From Pristiophorus japonicus (Eukaryota): a DNA stretch of 64,000 nucleotides. Positions 10,473-59,410 of this stretch are shown piece after piece. The stretch covers positions 17,856,001 through 17,920,000 of the forward strand of contig NC_091991.1 in the NCBI RefSeq assembly GCF_044704955.1. The letters run 5' to 3'. Position 1 is the stretch's first letter. Every line of letters begins with the position of its first letter. Position numbers and translations under genes: made by a program. The notes under the pieces are model-generated. The model saw only the letters and a program-made list of their open reading frames with translations. It did not search any database and was not told the DNA's origin.

Positions 10473-13400
10473 AGAACATAAGAACATAAGAAGCAGGAGT
10501 AGGCCATTTGGCCTCTCGAACCTGCTCCGTCAATAAAATCATGGCTGATCTGATCTTGGACTCAGCTCCACTTCCCTGCCCACTCCCCATAACCATTTAC
10601 TCCCTTATCGCTCAAAAGTCTCTCTATCTCCACCTTAAATATATTCAATGACACAGTCACAGCTCTCTGGGGCAGAGAATTCCACATAATTACAACCCTC
10701 TGAGAAAAGAAATTCCTCCTCATCTCAGTTTTAAATGGGCGACCCCTTATTCTAAAATTATAGACCCTAGTTCTAGACTTCCCTCATGAGTGGACACATC
10801 CTCTCTGCATCTACCTTGTCGAGCCCCCTCATAATCTAAATGTCTCAATAAGATCACTTCTCATTCTTCTGAATTCCAATGTGTACAGGCTCAACCTGCT
10901 CAACTTTTGTTCATAAATCAACCCCTTCATCTCAGGAATCAATCGAGTGAACCTTCTTTGAATGGCCTCCAATGCCAGTATATCCCTCCTTAAATAAGGA
11001 GACCAATCTGTACGCAGTACTCTAGGCGTGGCCTCACCAATACCGTGTACAGTTGTAGCAGGACTTCTCTGCTTTTATACTCCATCCCCCTTGCAATAAA
11101 GACCAACATTCCATTTGCCTTCCTGATTACTTGCTGTACCTATTGTGTTCCTAACACAGATGAGGCTGCACACAGGGAGGCTAAAGTAACAGTGACCTCA
11201 GTCTTTAATAAGACACTCCAGAGTGAGGAACAGGCCTTAGGGGCCGGCTTATATACCGTGCTCCCAAGGGATGCTGGGATCCCTCGGGACTTCAGGGGAT
11301 GAGCTCACTGGTGGCGGAACATGGGAGTGCATGCTTTACAGACACACACTCCGCACCCCCCAAATCAAAGTGAAAACTATTTGCAAGGTGAGGCCGTCGG
11401 GAGCCTTTTTTTCCCTGGTGGACCGCCTTGGTACAAATGTCTGTTCTGGTGTTTAGGCTGGGCCCTCGCTGGGCTGGCATGTTGTTGGCCCTGCAGGGCT
11501 TCTGGGCTGTTGGGCGTGATGGGTTCGATTTCCTGGTCCAGCGTGGTGTCGTTGATCCTTTGGGTGTGTGTTTTGGCTCGAAAAAGGTGGTGTCTGCTGT
11601 GAGTTGTTCAGGGCAGTCTGAGAACCGCAGCCTCGTTTGGTCCAGGCGCTTTCTGCAAATTTGTCCATTGTCTAGTTTGACTAAAACACCCTACTCCCTT
11701 CTTTAGCTATCACTGTGCCCGCGATCCACTTGGGACCATGTCCATTGTTTAGCACATACACAGGGTCATTCAGATCAACTTCCTGTGACACAGTGGCGTG
11801 ACCATCGTTTACATTTTGTTGCTGCCGCCTGCTCTCTACCTGATCATGCAGGTTGGGGTGAACCAGCGAGAGTCTGGTTTTAAGTGTCCTTTTCATGAGT
11901 AGCTCAGCCGGGGGCACCCCTGTGAGCGAGTGGGGTCTCGTGCGGTAGCTGAGCAGTACTCGGGACAGGCGGGTTTGGATAGAGCCTTCTGTGACTCGTT
12001 TAAGGCTCTGTTTGATGGTTTGTACTGCCCGCTCTGCCTGCCCATTGGAGGCTGGTTTAAACGGGGCCGAGGTGACATGTTTGATGCCATTGCGGGTCAT
12101 GAGTTCTTTATATTCGGCACAGGTGAAACATGGCCCGTTGTCACTGACCAGTATGTCAGGCAGGCCGTGGGTGACAAACATGGCCCTCAGGCTTTCAATG
12201 GTGGCGGTGGTGGTGCTTCCTGACATTATTTCACATTCAATCCATTTTGAAAAAGCATCCACCACCACCAGGAACATTTTACCACGAAACAGGTCCGCAT
12301 AGTCAACATGGATCCTCGACCATGGTCTGGAGGGCCAGGACCACAAACTTAGTGGTGTCTCTCTGGGCGCGTTGCTCAACTGAGCGCATACACTGCATTG
12401 CCGTAGACAGGACTCTAAGTCAGAGTCGATACCGGGCCACCACATGTGGGATCTGGCTATCGCTTTTATCATTACTATACCCGGTGTGTGCTGTGGATGT
12501 CCGAGATGAATGTCTCCTTACCCTTTTTTGGTAGCACTACGCGGTTACCCCACAACATGCAGTCTGCCTGAATGGACAGCTCGTGCTTTCACCGCTGGAA
12601 CACCTTGATTGGCTCTTGCATTTCAACGGGGATGCTGGCCCAGCTCCCATGCAGTACACAGTTTTTTTATGAGGGACAGCAGAGGATCTTGGCTGGTTCA
12701 TGTCCTAATCTGGCGGGCCGTGACAGGTGATTTATCATTTTCAAATGCTTCCATGACAATCAACACGTCTGCGGGCTGCGTCACCATCAACAAGTTTGCA
12801 GACTGCGCCATTTCCACCGCCGTGGTGGGCAATGGTAGCCGACTGAGAGCATCAGCATAGTTCTCGGTGCCTGGCCTGTGGCGGATGGAATAGTTATACG
12901 CTGATAGCCGCGAGTGCCCACCTTTGTATGCGGGCTGAGGCATTAGTATTTATCCCCTTGTTTTCAGTGAACAGGGATGTGAGAGGCTTGTGATCGGTTT
13001 CCAGCTCAAATTTGAGGCCAAACAGGTACTGATGCATTTTCTTTACCACGAACACACACGCTAATGCCTCTTTCTCAATCATGCTGTAGGCCCTCTCGGC
13101 CTTAGACATGCTCCTGGAAGCATATGCGACAGGTTGCAACTTCCCCGCAACGTTAGCTTGTTGTAATACACACCCGACTCTGTACGACGACGCATCACAT
13201 GCTAGCACAAGTCTTTTACACGGGTTATACAATGCAAGCAGCTTGTTGGAGCATAAAATGTTTCTGGCTTTCTCAAAAGCAATTACTTGTTTTTTTTCCC
13301 CATATCCAGTTCTCACCTTTGCGCAATCATACATGTAGGGGCTCTAAAAGGGTGCTTAATTCCGGTAGGAAGTTACCAAAATAGTTGAGGAGTCCCAGGA

Positions 13401-16248
13401 ACGACCGCAGCTCCGTGACGTTCTGTGGCCTGGGCGCGTACCTGATAGCGTCTGTCCTGGCGTCTGTGGGCCGAATGCCGTCCGCTGCTATCTTTCTCCC
13501 CAAAAACTCCACTTCTGTTGCCATGAAGACACATTTCAACCTCTTCAGCCGCAGTCCTACGCGATCCAGTTGCTGGAGGACCTCCTCCAGGTTTTGTAGG
13601 TGCTTGGCGGTGTCCCCACCCATAACCAATATGTCGTCCCGAAAGACCACCGTGTGTGGTACCGACTTGAGTAGGCTCTCCATGTTTCTCTGGAAGATCA
13701 CTGCAGCCGACCGAATTCCAAACGGGCATCTGTTGTAGATGAACAGTGCCTTGTGCGTGTTGATGCAGGTGAGGCCCTTCGAAGACTCCTCCAGCTTTTG
13801 CGTCATGTAGGCCGAAGTCAGGTCGAGCTTGGTGAACGTCATGCCTCCTGCAAGCGTCGCATATAGGTCGTCTGCCTTCGGTAATGGGTATTGGTCCTGT
13901 CGCGAGAAACGATTAATAGTTACTTTATAATCACCACAAATCCTGACCGTGCCATCACTTTTGAGTACTACAACAATCGGGCTGGCCCACTCGCTGAATT
14001 CCTCTGGGGAGATGATGCCCTCTGCCCTCGCGTTGCAGCCTGTCCAGCTCGATTTCTTCTTTCTCCCTCACCATGTGAGGTACCTTGTGGTGAATGGATC
14101 GTGCCTCTGGGATCAAGTGGATTCACACCTTCGCCCCGGAAAAGTTTCCAATGCCTGGCTCAAAAAGGGAATGAAATTTGTTTAGAACCTGAGTACATGA
14201 GGCCTCATCGACATGTGATAGTGCTGAGATGTCATTCCAGTTCCAGCGGATTTTGCCCAGCCAGCTCCTTCCAAGCACTGTGGGGCCATCGCCCGGGACA
14301 ATCCAGAATGGCAGTTCATGCATCGTGCCCTCATAGGTGACCTTGACGTGGCGCAGCCCAAGACAGTGATAAGCTCTTTGGTGTACGTTTTCAGTTTGGG
14401 GCTCAGGGCTGGTCTGAATGTCTTGTTGCACTACAGTCTCTCAAACATCTTTTTACTCATGATGGATTGGCTAGCACCAGTGTCCAGTTCCATGGCTACG
14501 GGTAAGCCATTCAATTTTACATTTAGCATTATAAGTGGACATTTCGTCAAAAACCTGTGCACCCCATGTACTTCAGCATCTGCCTCCTCTCTCTGAGGCT
14601 CGAAATTGCTTTGATCCACCATGGACTGATCTTCCTGTGCCACGTGGTGGTTATCAGGTTTTGCAGAGCTTGCAACTCGTTTGCAAGCTCGTTGGAGGTG
14701 TCCCATTGTTCCACAGCTCTTGCAAACATATCCTTTGATGTGGCATGAATAGGCTGAATGGAAGCCTCCACAACGCCAACAAGGTGTGAATTGCCTTGCA
14801 TTCATCCTTTGTTGGGGACTCTGAATCATCTGGGTTACCTGAGGCCTGCTGGCAGTTGCAGACTTGTGGGTTCTGCCCTGTACATTTCTACTCGCAAAAA
14901 CAGTTCCAGGTAATTTATGAACATTGCTGGCACTTGTGTGCTGAGAGATTTGTTTGGTGTTATCACTGGTGGACATAAACGCTTGTGCTATCGCAATGGC
15001 CTTACTGAGGGTTGGTATCTCTACAGTCAAAAGTTTTCATAGGATGGTCTCGTGGCCAATGCCCAGTACAAAAAAATCTCTGAGCATCTGCTCCAGGTAG
15101 CAATCCAACTCACATTGTCCTGCAAGTCGCCTTAGCTCGGCGACGTAACTCGCCACTTCTTGACCTTCAGATCGCTGGCACGTGTAGAACGGATACCTCA
15201 CCATCAACACGCTCTCCCTCCGGTTAAGATGCTCCCGAACCAGTGTACACAGCTCCTCATACGACTTATCTGTGGGTTTCACCGGAGCCAGAAGATTCTT
15301 CATGAGGCTGTAGGTCGGTGCCCGACAGACTGTGAGGAGGACCGCTCTCCTTTTTGCAGTGCTTCCTTCTCCGTCCAGCTCATTGGCTACAAAGTATTGG
15401 TCTGGCCATTCGACATAGGCTTCCCAGTCCTCAACCTCCGAGATGCCCACTGTTTGCTGTATCTTTGCGTTGGATTTGTATACTCATCGCCAGTTATTGT
15501 GTTCCTAACACAGATGAGGCTGCACACAGGGAGGTTAAAGTAACAGTGACCTCAGTCTTTAATAAGACACTCCAGAGTGAGGAACAGGCCTTTGGGTCCG
15601 GCTTATATACAGTGCTCCCTAGGGATGCTGGGATCCCTTGGGACTTCAGGGGATGAGCTCCCTGGTGGCGAAACATGGGAGTGCATGCTTTACAGATACA
15701 CAACAGTACCTGCATACTAACTTTACGTGTTTCATGCATAAGGACCCCCAGGTCCCTTTGTACTGTAATTTTTCTCCATTTAAGTAATAATTAGCTTTTT
15801 TATTTTTTTCTGCCAAAGTGGATAACCTCACATTTTCCCACATTATACTCCATCTGCCAAATTTTTTCCCACTCACTTAGCCTGCCTATATCCCTTTGCA
15901 GATTTTTGTGTCCTCCTCATAACTTGCTTTCTCACCCACCTTTGTATCATCAGCAAACTTGGCTACATTACACTCGGTCTTTTCATCCAAGTCATTAATA
16001 TAGATTGTAAATAGTTGAGGCCCCAGCAGCGATCCCGGCAGCAGCCCACTAGTCACTGGTTGCCAACCGGAAAATTACGCATTTATCCCAACTCTTTGTT
16101 TTCTGTTAATTAGCCAATCCTCTATCCATGCTAATATATTACCCCTAACCCTGTGAACTTTCATCTTGTGTAGTATCCTTTTATGTGAAACCTTATCGAA
16201 TGCCTTCTGGAAATCCAAATACACCACATCCACTGGTTCCCCCTTATC
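10473..16248 (-). mobile_element. CR1 LINE (5'-truncated) split by Gypsy element 1
   Basis: Tail at 10473. RT region at 15711-16248 (antisense of [13 protein letters not shown]). TSD CAGTCATT at 10465-10472 and 16249-16256. Confidence 0.93.
11141..15705 (-). mobile_element. Gypsy (Mag-like) LTR retrotransposon 1, full length, decayed gag-pol
   Basis: LTRs at 11141-11348 and 15495-15705 (about 9 substitutions). TSD GTACC. PBS TGGCGATGAG and a G-rich PPT. Gag Cys/His knuckles (CWRCGGFH, CKSCGTMGH), protease LDTGA, RT VFRDDILV, RNase H ACDAS/ETDHKPL, integrase HVDYA/SDNG/SNGQAER. Confidence 0.97.
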
Positions 16249-25204: not shown

Positions 25205-28200
25205 AAGAGGGAACTGAGGGAAATCCTTATTAGTCAGGAAATGGTTTAGGGAAATCGAAGAGACTGAAGGCCGATAAATCCCCAGGGCCTGATAGTCTGC
25301 ATCCCAGAGTACTTAAGGAAGTGGCCCTAGAAATAGTGGATGCATTGGTGGTCATTTTCCAACATTCCATGGATTCTGGTTCAGTTCCTATAGATTGGAG
25401 GGTAGCTAATGTAACCCCACTGTTTAAAAAAGGAGGGAGAGAGAAAACAGGGAATTATAGTCCGGATAGTCTGACATCGGTGGTGGGGAAAATGCTGGAA
25501 TCAGTTATTAAAGATGTAATAGCAGCGCATTTGGAAAGCAGTGACAGGATCGGTCCAAGTCATCATGGATTTATGAAAGGGAAATCATGCTTGACAAATC
25601 TTCTAGAGTTTTTTGAGGATGTAACTAGTAGAGTGGTTAAGGGAGAACCAGTGAATGTGGTGTATTTGGACTTTCAAAAGGCTTTTGACAAGATCCTACA
25701 CAAGAGATTAGTGTGCAAAATTAAGGCACATGGTATTGGGAGTAATGTATTGACATGGTTAGAGAACTGGTTGGCAGACAGGAAGCAAAGAGTGGGAATA
25801 AACGGGTCCTTTTCTGAATGGCAGGCAGTGACTAGTGCTGGGACCGCAGCTATTTACAATATACATTAATGATTTCGATGAAGGAATTGAATGTAATATC
25901 TCCAAATTGCAGATGACACTAAGCTGGGTGGCAGTGCGAGCTGCGAGGAGGATGCTAAGAGACTGCAGGGGGACTTGGATAGGTTAGGTGAATGGGTAAA
26001 TACATGGCAGATGCAGTATAATGTGGATAAATGTGAGGTTATCCACTTTGGTGACAAAAACAGGAAGGCAGATTATTATCTGAATGGTGACAGATTAGTA
26101 AAAGGGGAGGTGCAACGAGACCTGGGTGTCATGGTACATCAGTCATTGAAGGTAGGTGTAAGGTCCTTACACAATACCACAAATCCACACGAGGCACATT
26201 CTATGGACAAGGTCACTCCATAACCTGCACCTTTATTCATAGGACCAAGAAGTGATAAACCTGCATAGGACCTCCCTTTATATACCTGGGTGACCAGGTG
26301 AGGCGTGTATCCCACAAGTTCACCCCCTGTGGTCAAGGTGTGCATTTCTTACGTATATACAGTGTTGCAGTGTTGTTACATAAAGATTACATACATGACA
26401 TCACCTCTCCCTCAACATCTTATTGGGATCATAGGTTAAGTCTCTCGGGTGGTCTGCACTCTCTCGTGGAGCGCCGCAGTTGGGGCTCTGGTTGTTGAGC
26501 CTTGGTATGCGTGTCTGTCACCTGTGGTGATTCCGGCCTGTCCGGGCTGACCACAGGGACTGTGCATGCTGCTGAATGTTCTTGTTGCTCGTTCACTGGC
26601 AGTGGTGTGGGCAGCATCTCTTGATCTTCCTCATGTTTCTCAGTGTCCATGCTGAACCTTTTTTTCACTTGGTCCAGATGCTTGCGGCATACCTGCCCAT
26701 TGTTAAGTTTAACCACGATGACCCTATTCCCCTCTTTGTCTATTACAGTACCCTCAAGCAATTTGGGCCCCAAAGCGTGACTGAGAACAAATACGGGGTC
26801 ATCAATTTCTTTTCAGCTTCCCCTTGAATTTCGGTCATGGTACTCCTTTTGGGACTGGCGCTTGCCCTCAACAATGTCGGACAGGACTGGATGAATGAGG
26901 GACAGCCAAATTTTGAGTGTTCGTTTCATGAGTAGCTCTGCGGGCTGGACCCCCGTGAGCGAATGCAGTCGGGACCTATAGGCCAGCAGGAGGCGCGATA
27001 GGCGGCATTGAGGGGAGAGTCCTTAAATCCTGAGCATGCCTTGTTTTATGATTTGGACTGCACGTTCCGCCTGGCCATTGGAGGCCGGCTTGAACGGTGC
27101 TGTCTGTCCTGACATGGTTAATGCCATTACCCAACATGAACTCCCGGAATTCGTCGCTTGTGAAACATGGGCCATTATCGCTAACAAGGATGTCCAACAA
27201 GCTGTGGGTCACAAAGACCACGTGCAGACTCTCCACGGTGGTGGATATCATGCACGAATTCAAAATAATGCACTCGATCCATTTCGAGTATGCATCAATC
27301 ACAATGAGAAACATTTTTCCCTTGAACGGGCCCGCGTAGTCCACGTGAATACGTAACCATGGCCTGGTGGGCCGCTGATCAAATGCCAAACGGACATTGT
27401 TGTAAACAAACGGTCCCTTGTGCGTGGTGATGGTGATCAGTAGTTTAGATTCGTCGGCCAGTTCTTGGGTCATGTAGGCTGAAGTGAGGTCCAACTTGGT
27501 GAACAGCTTGCCACGTGCCAGCGTGGCAAAAAGTTCCTCTGTTCTCGGGAGCGGGTATTGGTCTTGTATGGATACCCGGTTGATAGTGGCCTTGTAGTCA
27601 CCACAGATCCTGACCGAGCCATCTGCTTTTAGGATGGGAACGATGGGGCTTGCCCAGTTGATGAATTCAACGGGCGAGATAATGCCCTCTCTCAGCAACC
27701 GGTTCAACTCGCTCTCAATTTTCTCCCGCATCACATACGGCACAACTCTGGCTTTGTGGTGCACTGGTCTGGCGTCCGGGGTGATGCGTATCACCACTTT
27801 GGTACCTTTGAACGTCCCAATGCCAGGTTGAAATAGTGACTCAAATTGCTATAGGACCTGTGAGCATGAACTTCGCTCCACAGATGACATGGCGTGCACA
27901 TCCCCCCATTTCCAGTTAATCTCAGCTAACCAGCTCCTCCCCAACAGTGCGGGACCATTGCCCGGGACAATCCAGAGCGGCAGCCGGTTCACCGATCCAT
28001 TGTATGTGACCGCAAACATTGCACTGCCTAGCACTGGAATGAATTCTTTGGTGTACGTCCGTAATTGCGTCTCAATGCGTTCTAGTTTGGATCTGCTGGC
28101 TTTGAGTGGCCACAGCTTTTCGAATTGTTGAACACTCATGAGTGACTGGCTGGCCCCCGTGTCCAGCTCCATGCGTACAGGGATGCGGTTTAATAGGACT

Positions 28201-30245
28201 TTCATCATCATAGGTGGCGTTTTGGTATATGTGCTGTGAATTTTTGCCACATGAACCCGCTGAACTTCAGCATCCATTGATTTGCCCCAAGCATCATCCT
28301 GAATCGCAGACCCCTCATCTGGTTCATCCGCCTTGTATATTAGCCTGTTTACAGGCTTTCTGCACATTCTGGTTAAATGGCCACTGAGGTTACAATTTCT
28401 GCAGACGAACTGTTGAAATCTGCACGGCCTGGCAGCATGTCTGCCCCACACCTCCAGCATGAACTGAGATTCCCATTGTTGTGAACAAAAGAGCTGTTAC
28501 AAGGCATACCTCGCTGATTGTCCCTTTCACTGCTCTTGAGCACCCTATTAGTGGGTGTCAATGGCTCCATCCCGGGCCGCATTGTCCACTGGGGGGGCGT
28601 AAATGTCCGTTCAGCCTGCCATTGTCTCTGTTGGAGACTTACTCTTGGATCTATTGCTGCCTGGTGTGTCTCGAACTGCCCTTGCCTGCCTGCGGGGCTC
28701 TGAGTCGCGTTTATGATATTGATTCCCTGATCCATCGCTACGTTGGAGGCAGAATTGCGCGCGTTTTTACCTTGGTTTCCTCCTCCCCCGCCATAAAAGT
28801 CTGAGCCATCAACGTCACCGCTTCTAAGGTCAAGTCCTTGGTCTCAATTAGCTTTCTGAAAATCCCAGCATGACCGATGCCCTCAATAAAGAAATCCCTT
28901 AGCATCTACCCCCTGCAGGCATCTGTGAACTTAGAGAGGCTGACCAAGCGCCGGAGGTCTGCAACGAAATCCGGTATGCTCTGTCCTTCCCGACGTCGGT
29001 GTGTATAGAATCTATGTCGGGCCATGTGTATGCTGCTCACCGGTTTGAGGTGCTCACCGATTCGTTTGTTGAGCTCTTCAAAGGTTTTGTCCGCCGGCTT
29101 CTCGGGTGCTAGCAGGTCTTTCATGAGCGCGTAAGTCTTAGGTCCACAGCTGGTCAGCAGATGAGCCCTTCGCTTGTTGGCCGCTGCGTCTCCCAGCCAG
29201 TCCTTTATAACAAAACTCTGCTGGAGCCTCTCAATGAAATCATCCCAGTCCTCACCAACACAGTACCGTTCAACAGTGCTGCCGGTGGCCATTCTCGTGG
29301 GTCGTTGATTCCCGTTTCTCGTCGCCAATGTAATGTCCTTACACAATACCACAAATCCACACGAGGCACATTCGATAGACAAGGTCACTCCATGACCTGA
29401 ATCTTTATTCACAGGACCAAGAAGTGATGACCCTGCATGGGACCTCCCTTTATATACCTGAGTGACCAGGCAAGGAGTGCCTCCCAGAAGTTCACCCCCT
29501 GTCTTCAAGGTGTGCATTTCTTACGTATATACAGTGTTGCAGTGTTGTTCCATTAAGATTACATACATGACAGTAGGCATGCAGGTACAACAGGCAGTAA
29601 AGAAAGCGAATGGCATGCTGGCCTTCATAGCGAGGGGATTTGAATATAGGAGCAGGGAGGTCTTACTGCAGTTGTACAGGACCATGGTGAGTATTGTGTG
29701 CAGTTTTGGTCTCCTAATCTGAGGAAGGACGTTCTTGCTATTGAGGGAGTGCAGCGAAGATTCACCAGACTGACTCCCGGGATGGCAGGACTGACATATG
29801 AGGAAGGATTGGATCGGCTAGGTTTATACTCACTGGAATTTAGAAGAATGAGAGGGGATCTCATAGAACCTTATAAAATTCTAACGGGACTGGACAGGTT
29901 AGATGCAGGAAGAATGTTTCCGATGTTGGGGAAGTCCAGAACCAGGGGTCACAGTCTAAGGATAAGGGGTAAGCCATTTAGGACCGAGATGAGGAGAAAC
30001 TTCTTCACCCAGAGAGTGGTGAACCTGTGGAATTCTCTATCACAGAAAGTTGTTGAGTCCAGTTCATTGGATATATTCAAGAGGGAGTGACCATTACGGC
30101 TAAGGGGATCAGGGGGTATGGAGAGAAGACAGGGGTTGGGTACTGAGGTTGCATGATCAGCCATGACCATGTTGAACGGCAGTGCAGGCTCGAAGGACCG
30201 AATGGCCTGCTCCTGCACCTATTTTCTATGTTTCTATGTTTCTAT
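25205..30245 (+). mobile_element. CR1 LINE (RT through 3' tail) split by Gypsy element 2
   Basis: [28 protein letters not shown] and [11 protein letters not shown]. Resumes at 29573 and ends in (TTTCTATG)n. Confidence 0.95.
26157..29572 (-). mobile_element. Gypsy (Mag-like) LTR retrotransposon 2 with an internal RT-to-IN deletion
   Basis: 244-bp LTRs at 26157-26400 and 29329-29572 (TG...CA). TSD GTAGG. PBS TGGCGACGAG. Gag MATGSTVERYCVGEDW, protease LDTGA, and the RT N-terminus joined directly to integrase RIHVDYAGPF. Confidence 0.96.
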
Positions 30246-33199: not shown

Positions 33200-34070
33200 T
33201 GATCCCAGTCCTGGGGGCTCTAGTTGCAGTCCCACTTGGGCTGCAGGATGACATGGAGATGGAGCAGAGGCAGCAAAGAGGACAAGCTGCTCGCAGAGGG
33301 AGGAGGAGGAGGGAGAGGAAAGCTCTCAGCAGGAGGCCTTACCCACCTCGAGTCCTCGGGTAGCACTTCTCCTATCTGCACCTAAGCCAGGAGGTGGGCA
33401 CAGAACTCTGCCACTTCTTAGAACCGGACCTGCAGCCCCAGAGCCGGGCGACGATGGGTTAGCCAGTGGTCCTCAAGGTGTCAATGGCCCTCAATTCTTT
33501 CTCCAGTGCATCATTCCTGGCTGGAATAGGCGACATAGCAAACATCTTGCAGTTCACCGTCCATAGCCGCATCTGGGAGGTCACAGAGGCTCTGTACTCG
33601 AGGTCAAGGGACTTAATTTGTCTAAACAGAGAGAAGTAGGAGGAGCACGAGCATGGCTTTCCCAGGATATCGGGCTTCCTCATGGCACAGGGCACCATGG
33701 ACTGCACACACGTGGCTTTGCGGGCGCCTCATCTCAATGGTGAGATGTTCCACCAGCCGCAAAGGGTACAACTCACTTGGTGTGCAGTTGATGTGCAATC
33801 ACGCCCAGCACATCATGATGGTGAATGCCCGGTGTGCTGGCAGCAGTCATGATGCCTTCATCCTGGGTCAGTCCGCTGTGCCAGCAATCTTCTACCAACC
33901 ACGTCGAACCCAAGGGTGGCTGCTAATCAAGAAGGGCTATCCATTCTACACCTGGCTGATGACTCTCTGCAACTCCACCACTCGTGGCCAGCACTCATAT
34001 AATAAGAGCCACGCTGCCATCAGGAACATCGTTGAGCAGACCATCGGGGTGCTCAAGCAACGGTTCTGCA
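33200..34070 (+). pseudogene. HARBI1-like Harbinger transposase
   Basis: ALSRRPYPPRV, GTMDCTHVALRAP, RKGYNSLGVQLMCNH, RCAGSSHDAFIL, GWLLIKKGYP, RNIVEQTIGVLKQRF. Confidence 0.9.
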
Positions 34071-34334
34071 GTTGTGCCTCCTCCTCTCCCTCCCTCCCTC
34101 CACCACACCCACCCCCCCCCCCCCAAACCAATTAGCTGCTACTCTTGCTGGTATTGCACCACCTTGGCCTGCAAAAAATAGGTAAGTATTTCAGTGTGTT
34201 TGCTGCAATGTGTTTGGGTGATCTGCCTGTTGTGGTTGAAGAGCTAGCAGTGTGGGCAAGGTGTGAGAAGTGGATATGAGGCTTGCAGCAGTGGTAAGTG
34301 TATGAGGATGAAGTGGAGCTATGAATTTGAGTTA

Positions 34335-37300
34335 TGTCATGTATGTACTATTGGGATCACTAGCCACTAGATGGCATCACTGTTGGAGGCCATCGGGCTC
34401 ACGCACGTGTGTGCAGCCCAAGTATAAAAGGCCAGCCATTTTTTCTATTAGTCACTTTGTGCCTTAATAAAGCAGAGCCAAGGTCATACCTCTTGGAGTT
34501 ACACAGTACTCAGTCGAACAGTTATTGCATACACAACATTTGGCGACGAGGCACCAAGAACCTTTGCATGCAAAAATGAGCACAATTGGATTGTTGGAGC
34601 AATTTGTGGAAGGAGTAGATTGGACAGACCTTGTGAGCCATTTGAGCCAGTTCATTGTGGCCAACAAAATGGAGGAGGTCGGCGACACAGATCGGCGCCG
34701 GGCGGTGTTCCTCACGGTTTGCGGTCCAAAACTTTATGGTCTGCTAAAGAATCTACTCCTGCCTGTGAGTCCAACAGAGAAGATGTATGAAGAATTGTGT
34801 ACACTGGTACAGGACCACCTTAAGCCAGACGAAGGCATCATCATCTCGAGATACAGATTTTACACGCACGTTCGCTCCGAGGGCCAGAATGCGGCGGAAT
34901 TCGTTGCCGACCTGAAACGTCTAGCGGGACCGTGTAAGTTCAAGGCTGTGTTGGCAGACATACTGCAGGACTTCTTTGTAATCAGCATCAACCACGAGGT
35001 GATCCTGCGTAAACTACTGGCAGTGGAGACGTTGGACTTGAACAGGGCTATCACGATCGCTCAGTCATGCATGACGACGGATAGAAGTCTAAAGCAGATA
35101 TCAGTGAAAAATCAAAACTCGGCAAGTACTGTAAATATGATTGATTTGGCATTCGGCAGAGCGGCACATGGCAGGGCCTACCTGACTGCGTACGCGAAAC
35201 CTGTGGCTGCCCAAAGTCCGCCAGCAGGAATGCATCCGATTTCTCCGTGTTGGCATTGTGGGGGAAATCATCGGCACCAGCAGTGCTGGTTTAAGCAATA
35301 TAGTTGGAAAGGCTGTCTGAGAATGGGGCATCTCCAGCGCAAGTGTCCGCAGATGAGCAAGCGTGCTGCGACACACCATGTGGAGGAAGATGGTCAGACT
35401 AACGCGGATCCGGATACACAATCTGAGATATCAGAGGAGGAAGTGTATAGACTGTACTCGTTCCTAACTAAGAGCAAACCGATAATGATCAACGTGAAAT
35501 TTAATGGGGTGCCGGCATCAATGGAACTGGGCATGGGGACGAGTCAATCGATAATGACCCAGAGGGCATTCGACAAGCTGTGAAATACTAAGGCTGTGAG
35601 GCCCAGGCTGAGTCCAGTCAATGCCAAGTTGCGCATGTACACCAAAGAAATCACAGTGATTGGCAGTGCCACAATTAAAGTGTGGTATAGCGGTGCGGTT
35701 CATGAGTTACCGCTATAGTTCTAGACAATAACCCGACGCTGTTCGGCAGGAATTGGTTAGAAAAAATCAGATGCGATTGGAATGACATCAAGGCGTTGTC
35801 ATCGGAGAAAGATAGTTGTGCCCAAGTACTGAGTAAGTTCCCCTCGCTGTTCGAACCAGGCATCGGCAACTTCATGGGAGCCAAGGTGCAGATCCACGTG
35901 GACTCAGCTGCAAGACCCGTCCATCATAAAGCTCGGGCAGTTCCGTATATGATGAGGGAGAAGGTCGAAATTGAACTGGACAGACTCCAGCGTGAAAGGA
36001 TCATATCACCGGTTGAATTTAATGAATGGGCCAGCCCCATTGTTCCTGGGCTGAAAAGTGTTGGCACAGTCAGAATCTGTGACGACTAGAAGGCTACGAT
36101 CAACAGGGTTTCGAAACAGGATCAGTACCCGTTACCGAAGGCTGATGACTTGTTTGCAATGCTAGCCGGGGGAAGTCGTTCACCAAACTGGACTTGATGT
36201 TGGCCTACATGACACAGGAGCTGGTCGAGATGACAAAGAGACTTACGTGCATTAACATGCATAAAGGAATGTTTATTTATCACAGGTGCCCTTTTTGAAT
36301 TCGCTCGGCTGCAGGAATATTTCAGAGGAACATGGAGAGTCTACTGAAGTCCGTTCCCAGAACCGTCGTGTTCCAAGATGACATCCTGATCACAGGTCGT
36401 GACTCCGAGGAACATCTGAACAACCTGGAAGAGGTTCTACATCGTCTGAACAAAGTGGGACTCAGACTGAAACGCTCGAAATGCATCTTCATGGCACCAG
36501 AGGTCGAATTCCTGGGGAGGAAATATGCTGCTGATGGCATCAGGCCCACGGACGCGAAAACCAAGGCTATCAAGAATGCACCCAAGCCGTAGAATGTGTC
36601 GGAGCTGCATTCGTTCCTGGGTCTACTCAACTACTTCGGTAACTTCCTACCTAAATTGAGCACCTTATTAGAATCACTGCACATGCTGCTAAAAAAAGGC
36701 GACAACTGGGTGTGGGATGCGTCTCAAGACAGAGCTTTTGAGAAAGCCACTAATCTGCTTTGCTTTAACAAGCTGCAGGTACATTATGACCCATGTAAAC
36801 ATTTAGTATTGGCCTGTGATGCTTCATCATATGGAATTGGTTGCGTACTCCAACAAGCTAATGAGTCGGGTAAACTTCAACCAGTCGCGTATGCTTCAAA
36901 AAGTTTGTCTAAAGCAGAAAGAGGTTAAAGCATGGTAGAGAAAGAAGCACTAGCCTGTGTGTATGGGGTTAAAAAGATGCATCAGTACCTGTTTGGTCTT
37001 CGGTTTGAACTGGAGACAGATCACAAGCCGCTCATTTCACTGTTCTCTGAAAACAATGCTTCATCTCGCATCCAGAGGTGGGCGCTGACATTATCCGCTT
37101 ATGATTATGTCATTCTCCATAGACCTGGCATCGAGAATTGTGCCGATGCTTTGAGCTGTCTGCCGTTGCCCACACCAGAGGTGGAAACGCCACAACCGGC
37201 GGACCTATTGTTAGTTATGGATGCTTTTGAGAGTGAAGGAATCCTTGTCACGGCTCAACAAGTTAAAAGCTGGACCAGTCAGGATCCGATTTTATCGGTG

Positions 37301-40060
37301 GTGAAGAGTTGCATCCTCAAAGGTGATTGGTCTGCCATACCCAAGCAAATGTGCAAGGAGACCAAACCTTACATTCGTCGCAAAGACGAACAGTCTATTT
37401 AATCTGATTGTATACTGTGGGGCAATCGTGTTGTTATGCTCAAGAAAGGGAGAGAGAAATTTGTACGTGAGCTACATAGCACACATCCCGACATTGTAAT
37501 GATGGAAGCCATCGCCAGGTCTCATATATGGTGGCCGGGAATTGACTCTGAACTGGAATCATGTGTGCATCAGTGCAACACTTGTATGCAGCTCTACAAA
37601 GCACCAGCGGAATCGCCGCTGAGTCTGTGGTTGTGGCCGTCCAAACCATGGTCCAGGATCCACATAGACTTTGCAGGTCCCTTCCTGGGGAAGATGTTTT
37701 TAGTTGTGGTGGATGCATATTCGAAGTAGATAGAGTGTGTAATCATGTCATCCAGCACATCCACAGCTACCATTGAGAATCTCAGTGTCATGTTCGCGAC
37801 ACATGGTCTGCCTGACATCATTGTTCGCGACAACAGATCGTGCTTCACCAGTCAGGAGTTTCAAGAGTTCATGAAACTCAATGGTATCAAACCTGCATCC
37901 AATGGGCAAGCAGAACGTGCTGTCCAAATCATAAAGCAGAGTATGAAGTGAGTGGATAGAGGTGTACCGATGGATGTGGTGTACTTAGATTTTCAAAAGG
38001 CATTTGATAAGGTGCCACACAAAAGGTTACTGCAGAAGATAAAGGTACGCGGAGTCAGTGGAAATGTATTAGCATGGATGGAGAATTGGCTGGCTAACAG
38101 AAAGCAGAGAGTCGGGATAAATGGATCCTTTTCGGGTTGGAAATCGGTGGTTAGTGGTGTGCAACAGGGATCGGTGCTGGGACCACAACTGTTTACAATA
38201 TACATAGATGACCTGGAAGAGGGGACAGAGTGTAGTGTAACAAAATTTGCAGATTACACAAAGATTAGTGGGAAAGCGCGTTGTATAGAGGACACAGAGA
38301 GGCTGCAAAGAGATTTAGATAGGTTAAGCGAATGGGCTAAGGTTTGGCAGATGGAATACAATGTCGGAAAGTGTGAGGTCATCCACCTTGGGGGAAAAAA
38401 CAGTAAAAGGGAATATTATTTGAATGGGGAGAAATTACAACATGCTGCAGTGCAGACCTTGTGCATGAATCCCAAAAAGTTAGTTTGCAGGTGCAAAACG
38501 TAATCAGGAAGGCGAATGGAATGATGGCCTTCATTGCGAGAGGGATGGAGTACAAAAGCAGGGAGGTCCTTCTGCAACTGTATAGGGTATTGGTGAGGCC
38601 GCACCTGGAGTACTGCGTGCAGTTTTGGTCACCTTACTTAAGGAAGGACATACTAGCTTTGGAGGGGGTACAGAGACGATTCACTAGGCTGATTCCAGAG
38701 ATGAGGGGGCTACCTTATGATGATAGATTGAGTAGACTGGGTCTTTACTTGTTGGAGTTCAGAAGGATGAGCGGTGATCTTATAGAAACATTTAAAATAA
38801 TGAAAGGGATAGACAAGATAGAGGCAGAGAGGTTGTTTCCACTGGTCGGGGAGACTAGAACTAGGGGGCACAGCCTCAAAATACGGGGGAGCCAATTTAA
38901 AACCAAGTTGAGAAGGAATTTCTTCTCCCAGAGGATTGTGAATCTGTGGAATTCTCTGCCCAAGGAAGCAGTTGAGGCTAGCTCATTGAATGTATTCAAG
39001 TCACAGATAGATAGATTTTTAACCAATAAGGGAATTAAGGGTTATGGGGAGCGGGCGGGTAAGTGGAGCTGAGTCCACGGCCAGATCAGCCATGATCTTG
39101 TTGAATGGCGGAGCAGGCTCGAGGGGCTAGATGGCCTACTCCTGTTCCTAATTCTTATGTTCTTATGAGTAACCCAAGGGTCACTGCAGACCCGTCTGTC
39201 ATGCATACTGCTGAGTTACAGGACGAGACCACACACACTTACCGGGGTCTCGCCAGTTGAACTAATGATGAAGAGAGGTCTTAAGACCAAGCTATCTCTT
39301 GTACACCCTGACTTGAATAATCATGTTGAATATAGAAGACAAAGTCAGCAAGGGTATCACGATCGCGCAGCTGTGTCATGCGATATTTCTGTAAATGATC
39401 CTGTATATGTTCTGAATTATGGTCAGGGTCCCGAGTGGATCGCTGGTACTGTCATGGCCAAGGAGGGCAACAGAGTATTTATTGTCAAGCTCAAAAATGG
39501 GCAAACATACAGGAAACATGGATCAGACAAAGCTGCGGCACACAGACGAACCGGAACAGTCGGAGGAAGAGACAATCGACGACCAAACAACCTACCCCCA
39601 GTCATCAGAGGATTCAGTGGTCATCAGTGAATCGGGACTTTCAATCACTGACATGTTAAATGAAAATGGACTTTCAATCCCTGAAATGGCCATTGCCACT
39701 CCCACCAGGTGAGCCACCCAGCCACCAGTCACAACAGACTCTGAACACTCACCCAAGGCTGGAGTTGAACTGAGACAGTCAACCCGGGGATGTAAAACAC
39801 CGGACCGTCTCAATTTGTAAAAGACTGTGTTAATATCTCAGAGGGGGGAATTGTCATGTATGTACTTTTGGGATCACTAGCCACGACATGGCGTCACTGT
39901 TGAAGGCCATTGGGCTGCACGCACATGTGTGTAGCCCAAGTATAAAAGGCCAGCCATTATATATATTAGTCACTTTGGGCCTTAATAAAGCAGAATTGGT
40001 CAAGGTCATACCTCTTGGAGTTAATCAGTACTCAGTCTAACAGTTATTGCATACACAACA
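34335..40060 (+). mobile_element. Gypsy (Mag-like) LTR retrotransposon 3, full length, with a CR1 inserted in the integrase
   Basis: LTRs at 34335-34538 and 39852-40060. TSD AGTTA. PBS TGGCGACGAGG and PPT AGAGGGGGGAA. Gag ORF to 35583, RT VFQDDILI, RNase H ACDAS, integrase HIDFAGPF. Confidence 0.97.
37954..39165 (+). mobile_element. CR1 LINE 3' 1.2 kb nested in Gypsy 3
   Basis: [15 protein letters not shown]...KFADYTK through the tail. TSD TGAGT at 37949-37953 and 39166-39170. Confidence 0.95.
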
Positions 40061-46248: not shown

Positions 46249-47847
46249 GGGCTCAGGTTTCGGACCCCCGCTAGAACGGCGCGCATCGGAGAGGCCCGCC
46301 TAATTTGTAGAACAAAAATTGCGCCGAATACTTACCTCGCGATTCTCCGATATCTGTAGGCCCGTTTCCAGTTCGGCGCAGCAGGAGCTGCTGGGGGCGG
46401 AGCTACAGCCCTGCACCAAAATCAGTGCCGGCAGCTGCACGCGTGCGCAGTAGCTCCTGGCCCTCACAGCGCGTCCTGTCTCCGGGCGACGACCCTATCC
46501 CTGGCCGAAGGTACGTCGCCCCTATCCTGGGCCGAGTGGCCTGACACCTCGTCGGCGGCGGGGCCCGCCCGCCCGGCATGTTGCTGGGGCCGGCCCTGCC
46601 TGATGTCCACTGTGGCGGCCGGCGTCTTCGGCGGCAGCGGTGGGGCCCGTTCAGCCTTCCTCCCTCCTGTTCAGCAGCCCTCCCATTCAGCCCTCCTCTC
46701 TCCCCCTTCCCTCCCCCGTCCTCCCCCCTCCTCTCCCCCTCTTCCTCCTCTCCCCCTTCCCCCTCCTCTCCCCCTTCCTCCCCTCTCCTCGCCCCCTTCC
46801 CCCTCCTCTCCCCTCCCCCTCCCTCCCCCTCCTCTCCCCTTCCCCCTCCTCTCCCCCTCTCCCTCCTCTCCCCCTTCCCCCTCCTCTCCCCTCCCCCTCC
46901 CTCCCCCTCCCTCTCCCCTTCCCCCTCCTCTCCCCTCTCCCCCTCCTCTCCCCTTCCTCCCCCCTCCTCGCCCCCTTCCCCCTCCTCTCCCCCTCCTCTC
47001 TCCCCCTCCCTCTCCCCTCCTCCCTCCCTCTCCCCACCTTCTCTCCCCCCTCCCTGCCCCCTCCTCTCCTCCCCTCTCCTCCTCTCCTGCCTCCCCTCTC
47101 CCCTCTCCCTCCCCCTCCCTCCCCCTCCCCTCTCCCCCTTCCCTTCCCCCTCTCTCCCCCTCCTCCACCTCCTCTTTTCTACCCACTTCCCCCCTCTCTC
47201 CCCCCCCACTCCCCCTCTCTCCCCCCCAACCCCCCCCCCCCTCTCTCCTCCCACCCCTCACTGTCAGAAACACAGGGAGAGAGACACTGACAGAGACAGC
47301 GAGAGAGACACTGGGGGGGCCCTGTTCCAGCAAGCTGTTGGAGGGCTCCCGGAGCTGCAGTAAGTGAGTAGAAAGTTAATTTTTTATTTATTGATTGATT
47401 TTTTAAAAAATTTTAATTTTTAATTTTTACATTTTTTTGATTGATTTATTGGTTGATTTATTGATTTATTTATCATTTATTATTGATGATGGCTCTTTAT
47501 TTGTAAAAGTGAAGTGTTTAATGCTTGTAAACCTCCCCCCGCCCCCCCAATCTCTCGTTTCCTACGCCTGATTTATAAGTGTAGGCAATGTTTTTCTGAG
47601 CGTACAAAAATCTACACTTACTCCATTCGAAGTTAGTTTGGAGTAAGTTTTCGCGCCTAAACTTGCAAAACAGGTGTAAGTGGTTGGACACGCACCTTTT
47701 GAAAAAAAAGTCTGTTCTACAATGAAACTATTCTCACTCACTAGAACTAGAGCAAACTAAATGCCGAGAATTGCAATTTTTAAGATGCTCCATTCTAAAC
47801 TAGTTGCTCCAAAAAAATAGGAGCAACTCAGGCCGAAACTTGAGCCC
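46249..47847. mobile_element. Harbinger-type MITE with an expanded polypyrimidine core
   Basis: TIRs GGGCTCAGGTTTCGG / CCGAAACTTGAGCCC. TSD TAG at 46246-46248 and 47848-47850. Confidence 0.92.
46690..47260. repeat. About 570-bp near-pure C/T tract (CCCCTCCTCT-like units)
   Basis: Read directly from the sequence; very few purines. Confidence 0.97.
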
Positions 47848-53322: not shown

Positions 53323-53499
53323 TAACCTCAGCTGCTTATTTGCCACTCTAGGCCGAGACCAGTTATTCGCAACCCTATCATCATCCCAGTTGAGGTCAGC
53401 TGACAGAACACACCAAGAACCAAATCTGGGACCTTCCCAGCCTGGAAAGGCTAATTGCAGGCTGGGGACTTGGGGGTAAGAATAGTTGAAGAAATCCCA

Positions 53500-54111: not shown

Positions 54112-55326
54112 AACAATAGTCTCCAGTGCCATCTGCTTACCATAAAATGCATGCAGCAAAATTTAGCTTTTTCTTTGTTTGTAACTTATAATACTATCAA
54201 TATTTTAAAATGCCCCTATTGTTAGAATATCTCCTGAAAACATATTTAAGATATAAACAGAAAAGGCTGGAAATACTCAGCAGGTCAGGCAGCATAGGCC
54301 TGAGACTTCTTTAGTGCAAACCGTATTAGCTGGACTTCCCCAATACTATACTTTAATCAGCGGCATAGACATTTTTGTGCATTATTTTGTTTCGTTTAAG
54401 TTTACTTCTCATTTATGGAGCTAGCCACACGACAGCTTGAACTACTTTAGGAATTTTTTTTTAAAGCATCTATTTACCCCCATTCATCTTCCCAGAGTGG
54501 CTGCGCCTGTTATGAATTAAGCATTGCCTGCGAACTGTGAATATGATGTGGTTTGCTTTTAAGACAATCAGAGACATTTCTGCATATCTGTGGAATGGAC
54601 ATCAAGTTGAGAAAGTTTTAAGTGTGTCAAGTGTCATCTAATTCTGCAGCAGCAGATGAGTCCTAAATTGCAAAGAGCCTTTCATTGCAAAATATGCTAA
54701 AAGAAACGGTGCCTATATCTAAAAAAATAAGAATATGTAACAGGAAACGAGATGATAGAGAAAGAAATAAATGGGGCCAAATCGCACTGTGCAATATTAG
54801 CATGCAAATATATTCATAGATTTGTGTGAAATTCCTTTGTCTGCCAGTTTAAGGGGAGCTTTAACCGATTTATTTTAAATTCTTTCATTAAAATGGCAAC
54901 TAAAGACATTTTACAAAGGTAAATGAATGCATTTGTAACCTGATATTGCACAGCAGATGATTTCAAAACACAATGGGGGAAAAATTCTGTTGTGCCCCGC
55001 TTGTGGGCGGTAATACTCGCCAGGCGTGGGACTTTGCACGAGGCACAGAAGTCCCGCCTCTTGCGAGAAATTGGGGTTACCACCCTCGAAAGGAAGTGGA
55101 GTGCAAAATAACAAGCTCTACTTCCTGTCTGGGGCAGTACTGGGGCGGACAGTTGGGGATTGGGGCGCTCGACTCAGCAGTGCTCGCACTGGGCTGTATA
55201 GCGCTGCCGGATAGGAGGGGCTCATCCCGGAATTAAAGGGAAGGGCACAAGCTGCATACTCTACATTATAAAAAGGGTTCTACCTGCACCACCGGGGAGC
55301 GCGGATGCCCCGCGATCAGTCCGGTA

Positions 55327-55743
55327 CTAACCCTGACCATAACTCTAACTCTAACTCGAACCTTAACCCTAACCCTAACCAGAACGCGAACCCGAACCCT
55401 AACACTAACTCTAACTCTAACTCTAATTCTAACCCTAACCCTAACCCTAACCCTAACTCTAACTTTAATTCTAACTCTAACTCTAACTCTAACCCTAACC
55501 CTTNNNNNNNNNNNNNNNNNNNNNNNNNNNNNNNNNNNNNNNNNNNNNNNNNNNNNNNNNNNNNNNNNNNNNNNNNNNNNNNNNNNNNNNNNNNNNNNNN
55601 NNNNNNNNNNNNNNNNNNNNNNNNNNNNNNNNNNNNNNNNNNNNNNNNNNNNNNNNNNNNNCCTAACACTAACGCTAACCCTAACCCTAACTATAACTCT
55701 AACCCTAACCCCAACCCTATCTCTAACCCTAACCCTAACCCTA
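55327..55743. repeat. Degenerate telomere-like (CCCTAA/CTCTAA)n array spanning an assembly gap
   Basis: Hexamers CCCTAA, CTCTAA, CCCGAA and CACTAA on both sides of the N run. Confidence 0.92.
55504..55661. other. Assembly gap (158 N)
   Basis: Run of N. Confidence 1.
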
Positions 55744-56549
55744 GGTGAGTGGACAAATGCATGGCAGATGCAGTATAATGTGGATAAGTGTGAGGTTATC
55801 CACTTTGGTGGCAAAAACAGAAGGCAGATTATTACCTGAATGGTACATTAGTCATTGAAAGTAGGCATGCAGGTACAGCAGGCAGTTAAGAAAGCAAATG
55901 GCATGTTGGCCTTCATAGCGAGAGGATTTGACTATAGGAACAGGGAGGTCTTGCTGCAGTTGTACAGGGCCTTGGTGAGACCACAACTTGAGTATTGTGT
56001 GCAATTTTGGTCTCCTAATCTGAGGAAGGACATTCTTGCTATTGAGGGAGTGCAGCGAAGGTTCACCAGACTGATTCCCGGGATGGCAGGACTGACATAT
56101 GAGGAAAGACTGGATCGACTAGGCTTATATTCACTGGAATTTAGAAGAATGAGAGGGGATCTCATAGAAGCATATAAAATTCTGATGGGATTGGACAGGT
56201 TAGATGCAGGAAGAATGTTCCCTATGTTGGGAAAGTCCAGAACCAGGGATCACAGTCTAAGAATAACGGGTAAGCCATATAGGACCGAGATGAGGAGAAA
56301 CTTTTTCACCCAGAGAATTGTGAACCTGTGGAATTCTCTGCCACAGAAAGTTGTTGAGTCCAGTTCGTTGGATATATTCAAAAGGGAGTTAGATGTGGCC
56401 CTTACAGCTAAAGGGATCAGGGGGTATGGAGAGAAGGCAGGAGCGGGGTACTGAAGTTGCATGATCAGCCATGATCATATTGAATGGTGGTGCAGGCTCG
56501 AAGGGCCGAATGGCCTGCTCCTGCACCTATTTTCTATGTTTTTCTATTT
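55742..56549 (+). mobile_element. CR1 3' fragment
   Basis: Starts TAGGTGAGTGG. ORF 55855-56454 and a TTTTCTATG tail. Confidence 0.95.
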
Positions 56550-57484: not shown

Positions 57485-58064
57485 CATCATCATCATAGGC
57501 AGTCCCTCGGAACCGAGGAAGACTAGCTTCCACTCTAAACATGTCCTTAGGTGGCTGAACAGTCTAATACGAGAGCCACAGTCCCTGGCACAGGTGGGAC
57601 AGATAGTCGTTGAGGGAAAGGGAGGGTGGGACTGGTTTGCCGCATGCTCTTTCCGCTGCTGCGCTTGATTTCTGCATGCTCTCGGCGATGAGACTCAAGG
57701 TGCTCAGCGCCCTCCCGGATGCACTTCCCCCACTTAGGGCGGTCTTTGGCCAGGGACTCCCAGGTGTCATTGGGGATGTTGCACTTTATCAGGGAGGCTT
57801 TGAGGGTGTCCTTGTAACGTTTCCTCTGCCCACCTTTGGTTCATTTGCCATGAAGGAGTTCCAAGTAGAGCGCTTGCTTTGGGAGTCTCGTGTCAGGCAT
57901 GCAAACAGTGTGGCCCGCCCAGCGGAGCTGATCAAGTGTGGTCAGTGCTTCAATGCTGGGGATGTTGGCCTGGTCGAGGACGCTAATGTTGGTGCGTCTG
58001 TCCTCCCAGGGGGATTTGCAGGAACTTGCGGAGACATCGTTGGTGGTATTTCTCCAGCGACTTG
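57485..58064 (-). mobile_element. RTE LINE 3' end
   Basis: Minus strand KRYKDTLKASLIKCNIP..TWESLAKDRPKW, and tail GAGGGACTGCCTA(TGA)n. Confidence 0.9.
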
Positions 58065-58144
58065 AGACTTGGGCAGGTAGGTTAGCTTAAAATGACCCCC
58101 AATGTGTCTTGTATGAGAGTGGTGTGAGCATCTCGTGCTGCTTA

Positions 58145-58310
58145 CGACAGAGGTGAGGCGAGAGTGACTGTCCTTGATATCAAGGCAGCATTTGACCGAG
58201 CGGGGGACCAAAGAGCCCGAGTAAAACTGAAGCCATTCGGATCACGAGAAAAACTCTCTGGTGGCTGGAATCATACCTGGCGGCTAGGAAGATGCCTGTG
58301 GTAGTTCCCT
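58145..58310 (+). mobile_element. LINE RT fragment
   Basis: RVTVLDIKAAFDR...WWLESYL. Confidence 0.7.
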
Positions 58311-58438
58311 GATATCTCTCAACCATACTTCCTGCTGGCGCACCTCGCTGCTTGGGTCGCGTCATCATATTACAAATGTGACATTCGGACATCACACTGC
58401 CTGTGAATTGGTTTATTGCATTATCTGAAGGACTGCCA

Positions 58439-59410
58439 GGCCGGAATTTTGTGGAGGAAGGCAGATTGGGGGGCAGCGAGGGCTCCAAGGCAGGGCCTGC
58501 TTTGCATGCGAGATTGAGAAGCTGGCTGGCTGCGGGCAGGTAGTCCTTCAGCTGAACAGAGGAGAGAAGAAGGCTTCAAGTGATGGCCAGGCCATTAAGT
58601 GGATCGGGATGTGAGGGTGGGTGGGGGGAGGGGGGGGGGGTGCGGTGGAGGGGAGCGAATCAGGGGTCAGGCAGATGATTGGGGGGGCGGTGAGAGAGGA
58701 TCGGTTGTTGGGGGTGGTGAAGGGAAGATCGTGGACGGTCTGAGCATCATCGGTTGGGGGCAGGGAGGGCTCGGAAATCAATCGAAGGCCTCGTGAGGGG
58801 GTCTCCAATCGCAGGGGTTGGGTTAGGCAGGGACTTTAGATCCAGGATGTCATGTATCCTACATGACTATTGTTGGTACTATCACAAGGTGTGCCACCAG
58901 AGGGCACAGCAGTGGGAGACTTGTAGGTTACCTGTACAGGTGTGCCTGGCCTAGTACAAAAGGCAGGCCACCATGTGTGATCCTCACTCTGGAGTTAACT
59001 AATAAAGGACTAAGGTCACGACAGTTCAAGTACAACACATTGCCTCGTGGAGTCATTACTAGAGCATCTAAGGACACAACACAGGAGGTAGGTATAAAGC
59101 AACTTACCTCCTGGATCCACGAGTCCCTGCCTCGGTTTAACTGCCGCGTTTCACGGATTGTGTGAGACCCGTCCACGCGCAGCGAAATTCAAAGTGCAGG
59201 TTAAAAAAAGAGGCTTCCAGCCTCATTAAAATATTTAAATTGGTGTTCCGCCCCTAGGAGCGGGTTGGCCGCCCCTGTTCCGCCCCGCCTCCGTCAAAAC
59301 AGGAAGTGGGCTGGTTGGAGGCAGGGTCAGTTCGGGAAGCGCCATTTTTAATAATATAACTACCCCCACACTCCAAACACACACGTTTTTTTTAAGGTTA
59401 AAATTGCCCC
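58439..59410. mobile_element. Harbinger-type MITE containing a solo LTR
   Basis: Ends GGCCGGAATTTT / AAAATTGCCCC. Right arm is homologous to 30360-30660. Confidence 0.65.
58848..59081 (+). mobile_element. Solo LTR (Gypsy-like)
   Basis: TGTCATG...CACAACA. TSD CAGGA at 58843-58847 and 59082-59086. TATA-like TACAAAAG and AATAAA. Confidence 0.92.

Follow-up and report, generated by a model that had tools for sequence, protein, structure and literature searches.

Does a CTCF-type motif that recurs close to the 5' edge of several long terminal repeats (LTRs) belong to the elements that carry it, and if so, what use may it be to them? This question is raised by a stretch of 64,000 nucleotides (nt) from Pristiophorus japonicus (contig NC_091991.1, positions 17,856,001 to 17,920,000; hereafter, the window), which consists of repeat-rich animal DNA with numerous pieces of CR1-type long interspersed nuclear elements (LINEs), the tails of which suggest a cartilaginous fish. 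Within it are three Ty3/gypsy elements that have both LTRs (Gypsy 1, Gypsy 2, and Gypsy 3), together with one solo LTR. On the sequence evidence, the feature is real and non-random, narrower in the window than an initial annotation had claimed and wider outside it. We consider the chances to be slightly better than even that the CTCF-type sequence at the edge of U3 in these Mag C-type LTRs has been kept by selection, in that bound CTCF would keep the small promoter of the element open.

CTCF-type motifs in the window LTRs

Regarding the motifs themselves, the three that the initial annotation had quoted were correct in sequence, coordinates, sense orientation, and position upstream of TATA. 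The 5' LTR of Gypsy 3 (34335..34538, + strand, 204 nt, with the ends TGTCATGT...ACACAACA) contains GCCACTAGATGGCATC at 34363-34378 on the sense strand, which includes an exact CTCF core, CCACTAGATGGCA (34364..34376, +), at LTR position 30, 59 nt ahead of TATA, with a score of 18.6 in an ad hoc CTCF matrix not taken from a database. The solo LTR (58848..59081, +, 234 nt) contains GCCACCAGAGGGCAC at 58893-58907, also on the sense strand, with the exact core CCACCAGAGGGCA (58894..58906, +) at LTR position 47, 61 nt ahead of a TATA-like box, and a score of 18.7. In Gypsy 1, the sense strand of which is the minus strand, the 5' LTR (15495..15705, -, 211 nt) contains CGCCACCAGGGAGCTC at 15655-15670 and, within it, the CTCF-like core CCACCAGGGAGCT (15656..15668, -), which has two mismatches and a score of 9.3 and is located at LTR position 38, 59 nt ahead of TATA.

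The motif said to be mutated in the 3' LTR of Gypsy 3 (39852..40060, +) was recovered as a decayed site, CCACGACATGGCG, at 39881-39893 with a score of 7.5, and the 3' LTR of Gypsy 1 (11141..11348, -) has a weaker CTCF-type site at 11302-11314 (score 2.9). Gypsy 2 (26157-29572, -), which is just 3.4 kb long and has lost most of its reverse transcriptase (RT) and RNase H, has no aligned CTCF match, with best scores of 0.8 and 2.9 in its LTRs. The near match that had been assigned to this element, GACCACAGGGGGTG, is confined to the 3' LTR (26157..26400, -), in which the one-base-short site CCACAGGGGGTG lies at LTR position 69, 48 nt upstream of TATA; the 5' LTR (29329..29572, -, 244 nt) has GAAGACAGGGGGTG, and the broken site at LTR position 69 reads AGACAGGGGGTG.

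The core consensus CCASYAGRKGGCR / CCACNAGGTGGCAG (PMC5291250) is exact in the Gypsy 3 5' LTR and the solo LTR and absent from Gypsy 2. No other exact match to CCASYAGRKGGCR exists in the 64 kb, and the two sites have the top scores among approximately 128,000 window positions. With one mismatch allowed, there were six matches against 2.08 expected, a number reached by 1 of 100 shuffles. When the four LTRs were shuffled 2000 times, at least three sites scoring 9, at any place and on either strand, occurred at a frequency of 0.0015, a value that treats the families as independent, though they are related. An ungapped anchored comparison of the three site-bearing families showed that the core was better kept than its surroundings, with identity at 8 of 12 core positions, compared with 4 of 25 positions upstream and 9 of the 40 that follow. 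A candidate for the upstream motif of CTCF zinc fingers 9-11, ATGCACTCCC (15677..15686, -), lies 8 nt ahead of the core in the Gypsy 1 5' LTR; compared by eye, it is identical at 6 of 10 positions to the motif of the IL3 insulator, CTGCAGTTTC, which has an equal 8-nt spacing (PMC12885311). No match to this upstream motif, which has been reported at approximately 13% of CTCF sites and tied to insulator activity (PMC12885311), was seen by eye in Gypsy 3 or the solo LTR.

The LTR families had been described as unrelated and as sharing little else, which is contradicted by their alignment. Pairwise identities among the four families are 58-68% (z 3.8-9.3 against 200 shuffles), and the similarity persists without the first 65 nt (z 2.7-6.8). 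TATA, TCACT, A(A/T)TAAA, and AGGTCA are common to all four, the primer-binding site (PBS) TGGCGAYGAG is common to Gypsy 1, 2, and 3, which are the families having internal regions, and the three elements form a single RT clade (SH-like approximate likelihood ratio test, SH-aLRT, 97-99). The notion of three unrelated families was rejected on the basis of the alignment. Since the families are 58-68% alike and the site stands 59-61 nt ahead of TATA in three of them, the window sites represent one inherited site, and the families count once, not three times.

Each of Gypsy 1, 2, and 3 and the solo LTR is flanked by a 5-bp target duplication (GGTAC, CCTAC, AGTTA, and CAGGA, respectively), the LTR pairs within elements are 91-96% identical, and the PBSs are at 15492, 29327, and 34541. 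The distance from TATA to the initiator-like TCACT is exactly 29 nt in all seven LTRs, and TCACT likely marks the U3/R border. As a separate observation, AGGTCA has been retained in each of the four families at 11-19 nt past the beginning of the poly(A) signal, with AGGTTA in its place in the 3' LTR of Gypsy 2; the Gypsy 3 version reads CCAAGGTCA, which we take to be an SF-1/ERR-type nuclear receptor site. Gypsy 1 and Gypsy 3 show the domain order protease-RT-RNase H-integrase as in Ty3/gypsy (Pfam matches and tblastn order), and a CR1-type LINE piece sits inside the integrase end of the latter, at approximately 37950-39170. The RT stretch of Gypsy 1 (13327..14067, -, Pfam RVT_1) has K02A2.6-like relatives, which we presume to be a marker of Mag-type elements.

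The Mag C (SURL) group of Ty3/gypsy, vertebrates being among its hosts, has been described as having a median LTR length of 164 nt in a training set and the termini TGTNATRT...AYANAACA (PMC3601003). The window LTRs are likewise short (204-244 nt). Both ends fit these motifs in Gypsy 3 and the solo LTR; in Gypsy 2, the 5' end fits and the 3' ends deviate (ACATTACA, ACCTTACA), and Gypsy 1 deviates at both ends (TGTTGTGT...ACACAATA). The assignment of the window elements as putative Mag C-type Ty3/gypsy is accordingly based on LTR termini and the presumed link of K02A2.6-like pol to Mag-type elements.

In order to describe the site in further Gypsy 3 copies, contigs from two of four listed DNA-type runs, the two being of one sample and possibly from the source of the window itself, were aligned to the Gypsy 3 5' LTR (2120 and 3907 contigs). 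Loose ends at the 5' edge of the LTR were present in 87 and 139 contigs, which indicates that the Gypsy 3 family has many insertions. No variant reached 2% over 34364-34374, position 34376 was G in 73-74% and A in approximately 26-27%, both of which are compatible with the motif, and the motif-breaking C>T at 34375 occurred in 3-5%. An intact core is thus the usual state among Gypsy 3 copies, and the 3' LTR in the window is a decayed copy. The CpG of the core decays asymmetrically, the motif-compatible letter being far commoner than the motif-breaking letter, whereas another CpG of the LTR (34406-34407) decays symmetrically at 10-12% per side. This asymmetry is only a hint, because a single source element or reference mapping bias could yield the same pattern.

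Related elements and their hosts

A total of 136 loci were gathered by homology to the Gypsy 1 RT stretch alone, with the motif not being used; the metagenome part of this search covered 8 of 64 parts and retained the 80 best of 559 stretches that had been confirmed, and viral contigs provided few relatives (1, 7, and 1 loci). LTR starts were anchored blind to the motif by the purine tract or PBS in 66 cases (3 placed by eye), or 62 without 4 near-duplicates. The tested interval was +20 to +55 on the sense strand with a threshold of at least 9; it brackets the positions in the initial annotation, and its edges were fixed after some matches had been seen. A PBS pattern search in five genomes was dropped because its result was near that of the reversed control.

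Four of the 62 LTR starts reached the threshold, at +27 to +42, against a shuffle mean of 0.09 (largest, 2 in 300), and a control with a column-permuted matrix also had a largest value of 2 in 1000. The sites scored 19.9 at +33 (L012), 16.7 at +42 (L030), 13.2 at +32 (L024), and 9.4 at +27 (L025). No site scoring at least 9 was found on the opposite strand of the 62 starts, and none of 21,260 other positions reached 9. The check proposed in the initial annotation, a bias in position and orientation across LTR families relative to shuffles, was thus borne out in elements of other animals. A one-base-short site in L101 (score 3.4) was left out of the count because this locus has no defined LTR start. 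Moreover, 80 further contigs from the genomes G001, G002, G003, G068, G177, and G186, which include 60 of the 118 matches of G001 and are mostly of other Gypsy lineages (RT approximately 27-40% identical to the query, with a few Mag-type at 43-48%), had no site at 24 anchors defined by a purine tract plus TG, many of them doubtful, a weak indication that the feature is not general to Gypsy.

Regarding the hosts, families were classified as teleost-type when they matched a teleost protein at an identity of at least 87% or shared a 90% cluster with one. The pol of L013, a member of the L012 family, shares a 90% cluster with a protein of Clupea harengus; L030 is 90% identical to a protein of Scomber, and, over RT/RNase H, L024 and L025 are 87-88% identical to proteins of Coilia and Metynnis. 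The site was present in four of seven teleost-type families and in none of the 55 others, most of which have no host label (Fisher p=6e-5), and therefore the claim of a general Mag-type feature was not sustained. It was absent from the 26 of the 62 anchored starts that came from animal DNA in records of metagenome-assembled genomes (MAGs), many of which are titled with bacteria that we take to be sponge symbionts.

Site-bearing elements fall on three branches of the RT tree, namely, the window clade, L012 with L030, and L024 with L025, and three changes are needed to account for them. A single clade of all site-bearing elements was rejected in a quick tree (approximately unbiased test, p-AU 2e-5), and the window clade and the L012/L030 branch may still be one clade. 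The site thus arose independently at least twice or was lost repeatedly. The site may nevertheless be an inherited passenger, which arose by chance a few times, was carried along as U3 was copied whole, and is of no use to the element, while it may still seed CTCF sites in the host. The homology of the window LTRs, the missing or broken site in Gypsy 2 and three of the seven teleost-type families, and the lack of excess core conservation among Gypsy 3 copies are all consistent with this account, which we regard as distinctly improbable: chance would not place the sites of three lineages on a single strand between +27 and +47, with 0 of 21,260 elsewhere, and between families the core is better kept than its neighbors.

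All seven sites retain CCA and AG, with variation falling at degenerate positions of the consensus. The conserved feature could also be a short inverted repeat, a hairpin of the GCCAC-N3-GTGGC type, or the site of another factor that resembles the CTCF core. Hairpins of 4-5 bp are predicted in Gypsy 3, the solo LTR, L012, and L030 (-2.0 to -4.7 kcal/mol), and several LTRs of plant Retrofit (copia) elements, the hosts of which lack CTCF, appear by eye to have a conserved CCAC-N6-GG shortly upstream of TATA (PMC3601003, supplement 2). However, that plant motif has another spacing and no fixed AG, Gypsy 1, L024, and L025 have almost no hairpin (-0.2 to -0.9 kcal/mol) and yet retain CCA..AG, and the matrix fits a single strand, with reverse scores below -27. 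In addition, CTCF has been reported to be absent outside bilaterians (PMC12221973), and the site was lacking in the 26 starts from MAG contaminants, many of them in records titled with presumed sponge symbionts, which also counts against a role that does not involve CTCF. A hairpin would account for four of the seven sites and not for the other three, which weakens this explanation, and we consider it to be very unlikely.

Predicted function and comparison with known systems

If the site is kept by selection for an open promoter, its mode of action may be outlined as follows. U3 is templated once at reverse transcription and then copied into both LTRs. Each insertion would deliver two sites of the same direction, and each solo LTR one. 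At the host junction, some 60 nt away from TATA within a U3 that is approximately 115-145 nt long, CTCF would hold off flanking chromatin and methylation, serving as a local barrier and a nucleosome-positioning point between the host chromatin and the TATA/initiator region. It would occupy only the unmethylated minority of copies, as with variably methylated mouse IAP LTRs (PMC7898769). The forward site would also anchor loops running downstream via the element into host DNA, and such host anchors would be a by-product. Loops are mainly formed between forward-reverse CCACNAGGTGGCAG pairs, with 8704 versus 174 divergent pairs in one report (PMC5291250). Since both LTR sites point in the same direction, that is, in tandem, they cannot close a convergent loop around the element, and a self-insulating loop enclosing it was rejected on this ground. 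The main benefit would most likely be local, at the host junction of the LTR.

A true CTCF site may act in the opposite sense by dampening or directing the LTR, either through repression of the 5' LTR promoter or by stopping the LTR enhancer from reaching upstream host genes, which would lower the cost to the host. In bovine leukemia virus (BLV), CTCF was found to repress the 5' LTR and favor the 3' LTR (PMC8989512), and insulation was reported to be greater with an enhancer downstream of CCACCAG (PMC12885311), as would be the arrangement here, in which the remaining U3 lies downstream. The distance of 59-61 nt between the site and TATA in three families fits either role. Repression of the kind described at the BLV 5' LTR would be the main functional rival to an open promoter, and we judge it to be unlikely.

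Several points weigh against the view that the site is kept by selection in order to hold the promoter open. Among Gypsy 3 copies, the U3 flanks of the core (34335-34363 and 34377-34393) are as invariant as the core itself, which indicates no extra constraint on it, and CpG decay, seen both in the site and in other parts of the LTR, is indicative of methylation in the germline. The scores come from an ad hoc matrix and not from a database matrix, and strong matches to it exist outside LTRs (17.4 at 26980 and 14.8 at 60178). Outside the window, the four matches are two sister pairs and thus represent approximately two independent lineages; judged by eye, approximately 19 of the 62 anchors seem to be misplaced, which swells the number of negatives, and many of the misplaced-looking anchors belong to families whose pair- or PBS-based LTRs likewise have no site. 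The teleost label was drawn from named proteins fetched with the L013 and L024 queries, which favors the site-bearing lineages. L008, L021, and L029 are teleost-type and lack the site, and, taken together with the absence of an intact site in Gypsy 2, they indicate that it is dispensable. In known systems, most motif-bearing IAP LTRs of the mouse were reported to be unbound (PMC7898769), and the repression of the BLV 5' LTR promoter by CTCF has the opposite sign to the role proposed here (PMC8989512).

A broader proposal, to which we would give well under an even chance, is that the predicted forward-facing CTCF site at the outer U3 edge is a selected module that recurs in vertebrate Mag C, either gained separately by a number of lineages in CTCF-bearing hosts or kept since before the split of sharks and bony fish and lost elsewhere, and that it has converged on the IAP layout. 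High-copy families such as Gypsy 3 would then be a main source from which sharks and fish acquire oriented CTCF anchors, with the element itself profiting from the spread.

A close precedent is that of mouse IAP LTRs, in which a CTCF motif is present at the 5' end of U3 in approximately 10% of LTRs and binding has been measured (PMC7898769). The window LTRs resemble them in that the motif is located at the 5' end of U3, occurs in some LTR types only, and contains a CpG, such that binding may depend on methylation (PMC7898769). In contrast to these retrovirus-class elements, the present site belongs to Ty3/gypsy elements of the Mag C type, is the family norm in Gypsy 3, is found in three polymerase lineages, and is a predicted binding site. 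The gypsy insulator of Drosophila is also built into a Ty3/gypsy element, but consists of arrayed Su(Hw) sites within the 5' untranslated region of an errantivirus rather than one CTCF site in U3. The proviruses of BLV and human T-lymphotropic virus type 1 (HTLV-1) are similarly integrating retroelements with CTCF sites of their own that affect the LTR promoter and loop with host DNA, and they differ from the present elements in being exogenous deltaretroviruses with demonstrated binding. HTLV-1 has a single proviral site, and in BLV the effect at the 5' LTR is repression (PMC8989512).

In the lamprey, CTCF binds the mammalian motif, and the LTR/Gypsy repeats 743 and 697 were strongly enriched in CTCF peaks of chromatin immunoprecipitation sequencing, with 96 of 166 and 137 of 359 copies under peaks, respectively (PMC5504073, Table 3). 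These repeats similarly link the Gypsy class to CTCF in a non-mammalian vertebrate and are comparable to the window LTRs at the level of class (PMC5504073). A survey of LTR structure covering Mag C deemed U3 to be poor in recognizable motifs, and its main text contains neither "CTCF" nor "insulator" (PMC3601003). A literature search, the coverage of which largely excluded subscription papers, yielded no description of a CTCF motif at a set position in the LTRs of Mag or other fish Gypsy elements. What appears to be new is, therefore, a CTCF-type motif at a fixed place in putative Mag C-type LTRs, the U3 motif of IAP and the CTCF-bound Gypsy repeats of the lamprey being known already. It is an open question, mostly addressed in mammals, whether the presence of CTCF sites in transposons is accidental or due to a service that the sites render the element, and families with and without the site in similar hosts offer a natural comparison of copy number, methylation, and expression. 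The present results also name concrete repeat families for the reading of CTCF maps in sharks and fish and provide a reason to retain multi-mapping reads. If CTCF binds, the spread of these elements would scatter oriented chromatin anchors.

Other features of the window and of the sources searched

The third-best matrix match of the window (26980-26998, +, 17.4) is located toward the integrase end of the Gypsy 2 internal region and is antisense to that element. Another CTCF-like sequence, CCACTAGATGGTG (60160-60178, -, 14.8), has surroundings without a match to the three LTR queries; it lies approximately 1.1 kb downstream of the forward site of the solo LTR and is convergent with it. Prokaryote reference genomes were found to hold much animal host DNA, as in G001, the genome of L101, in which a Gypsy RT profile has 118 matches; LTR retrotransposons are also present in several MAG contigs of 0.5-2.8 Mb among the records behind L088-L136. 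Elsewhere in the window, a DDE_Tnp_4 transposase fragment (33626-34135, +) lies close upstream of Gypsy 3, a degenerate short-period tandem array is present at 46646-47100, and a degenerate telomere-like CCCTAA array extends across an assembly gap at 55296-55767.

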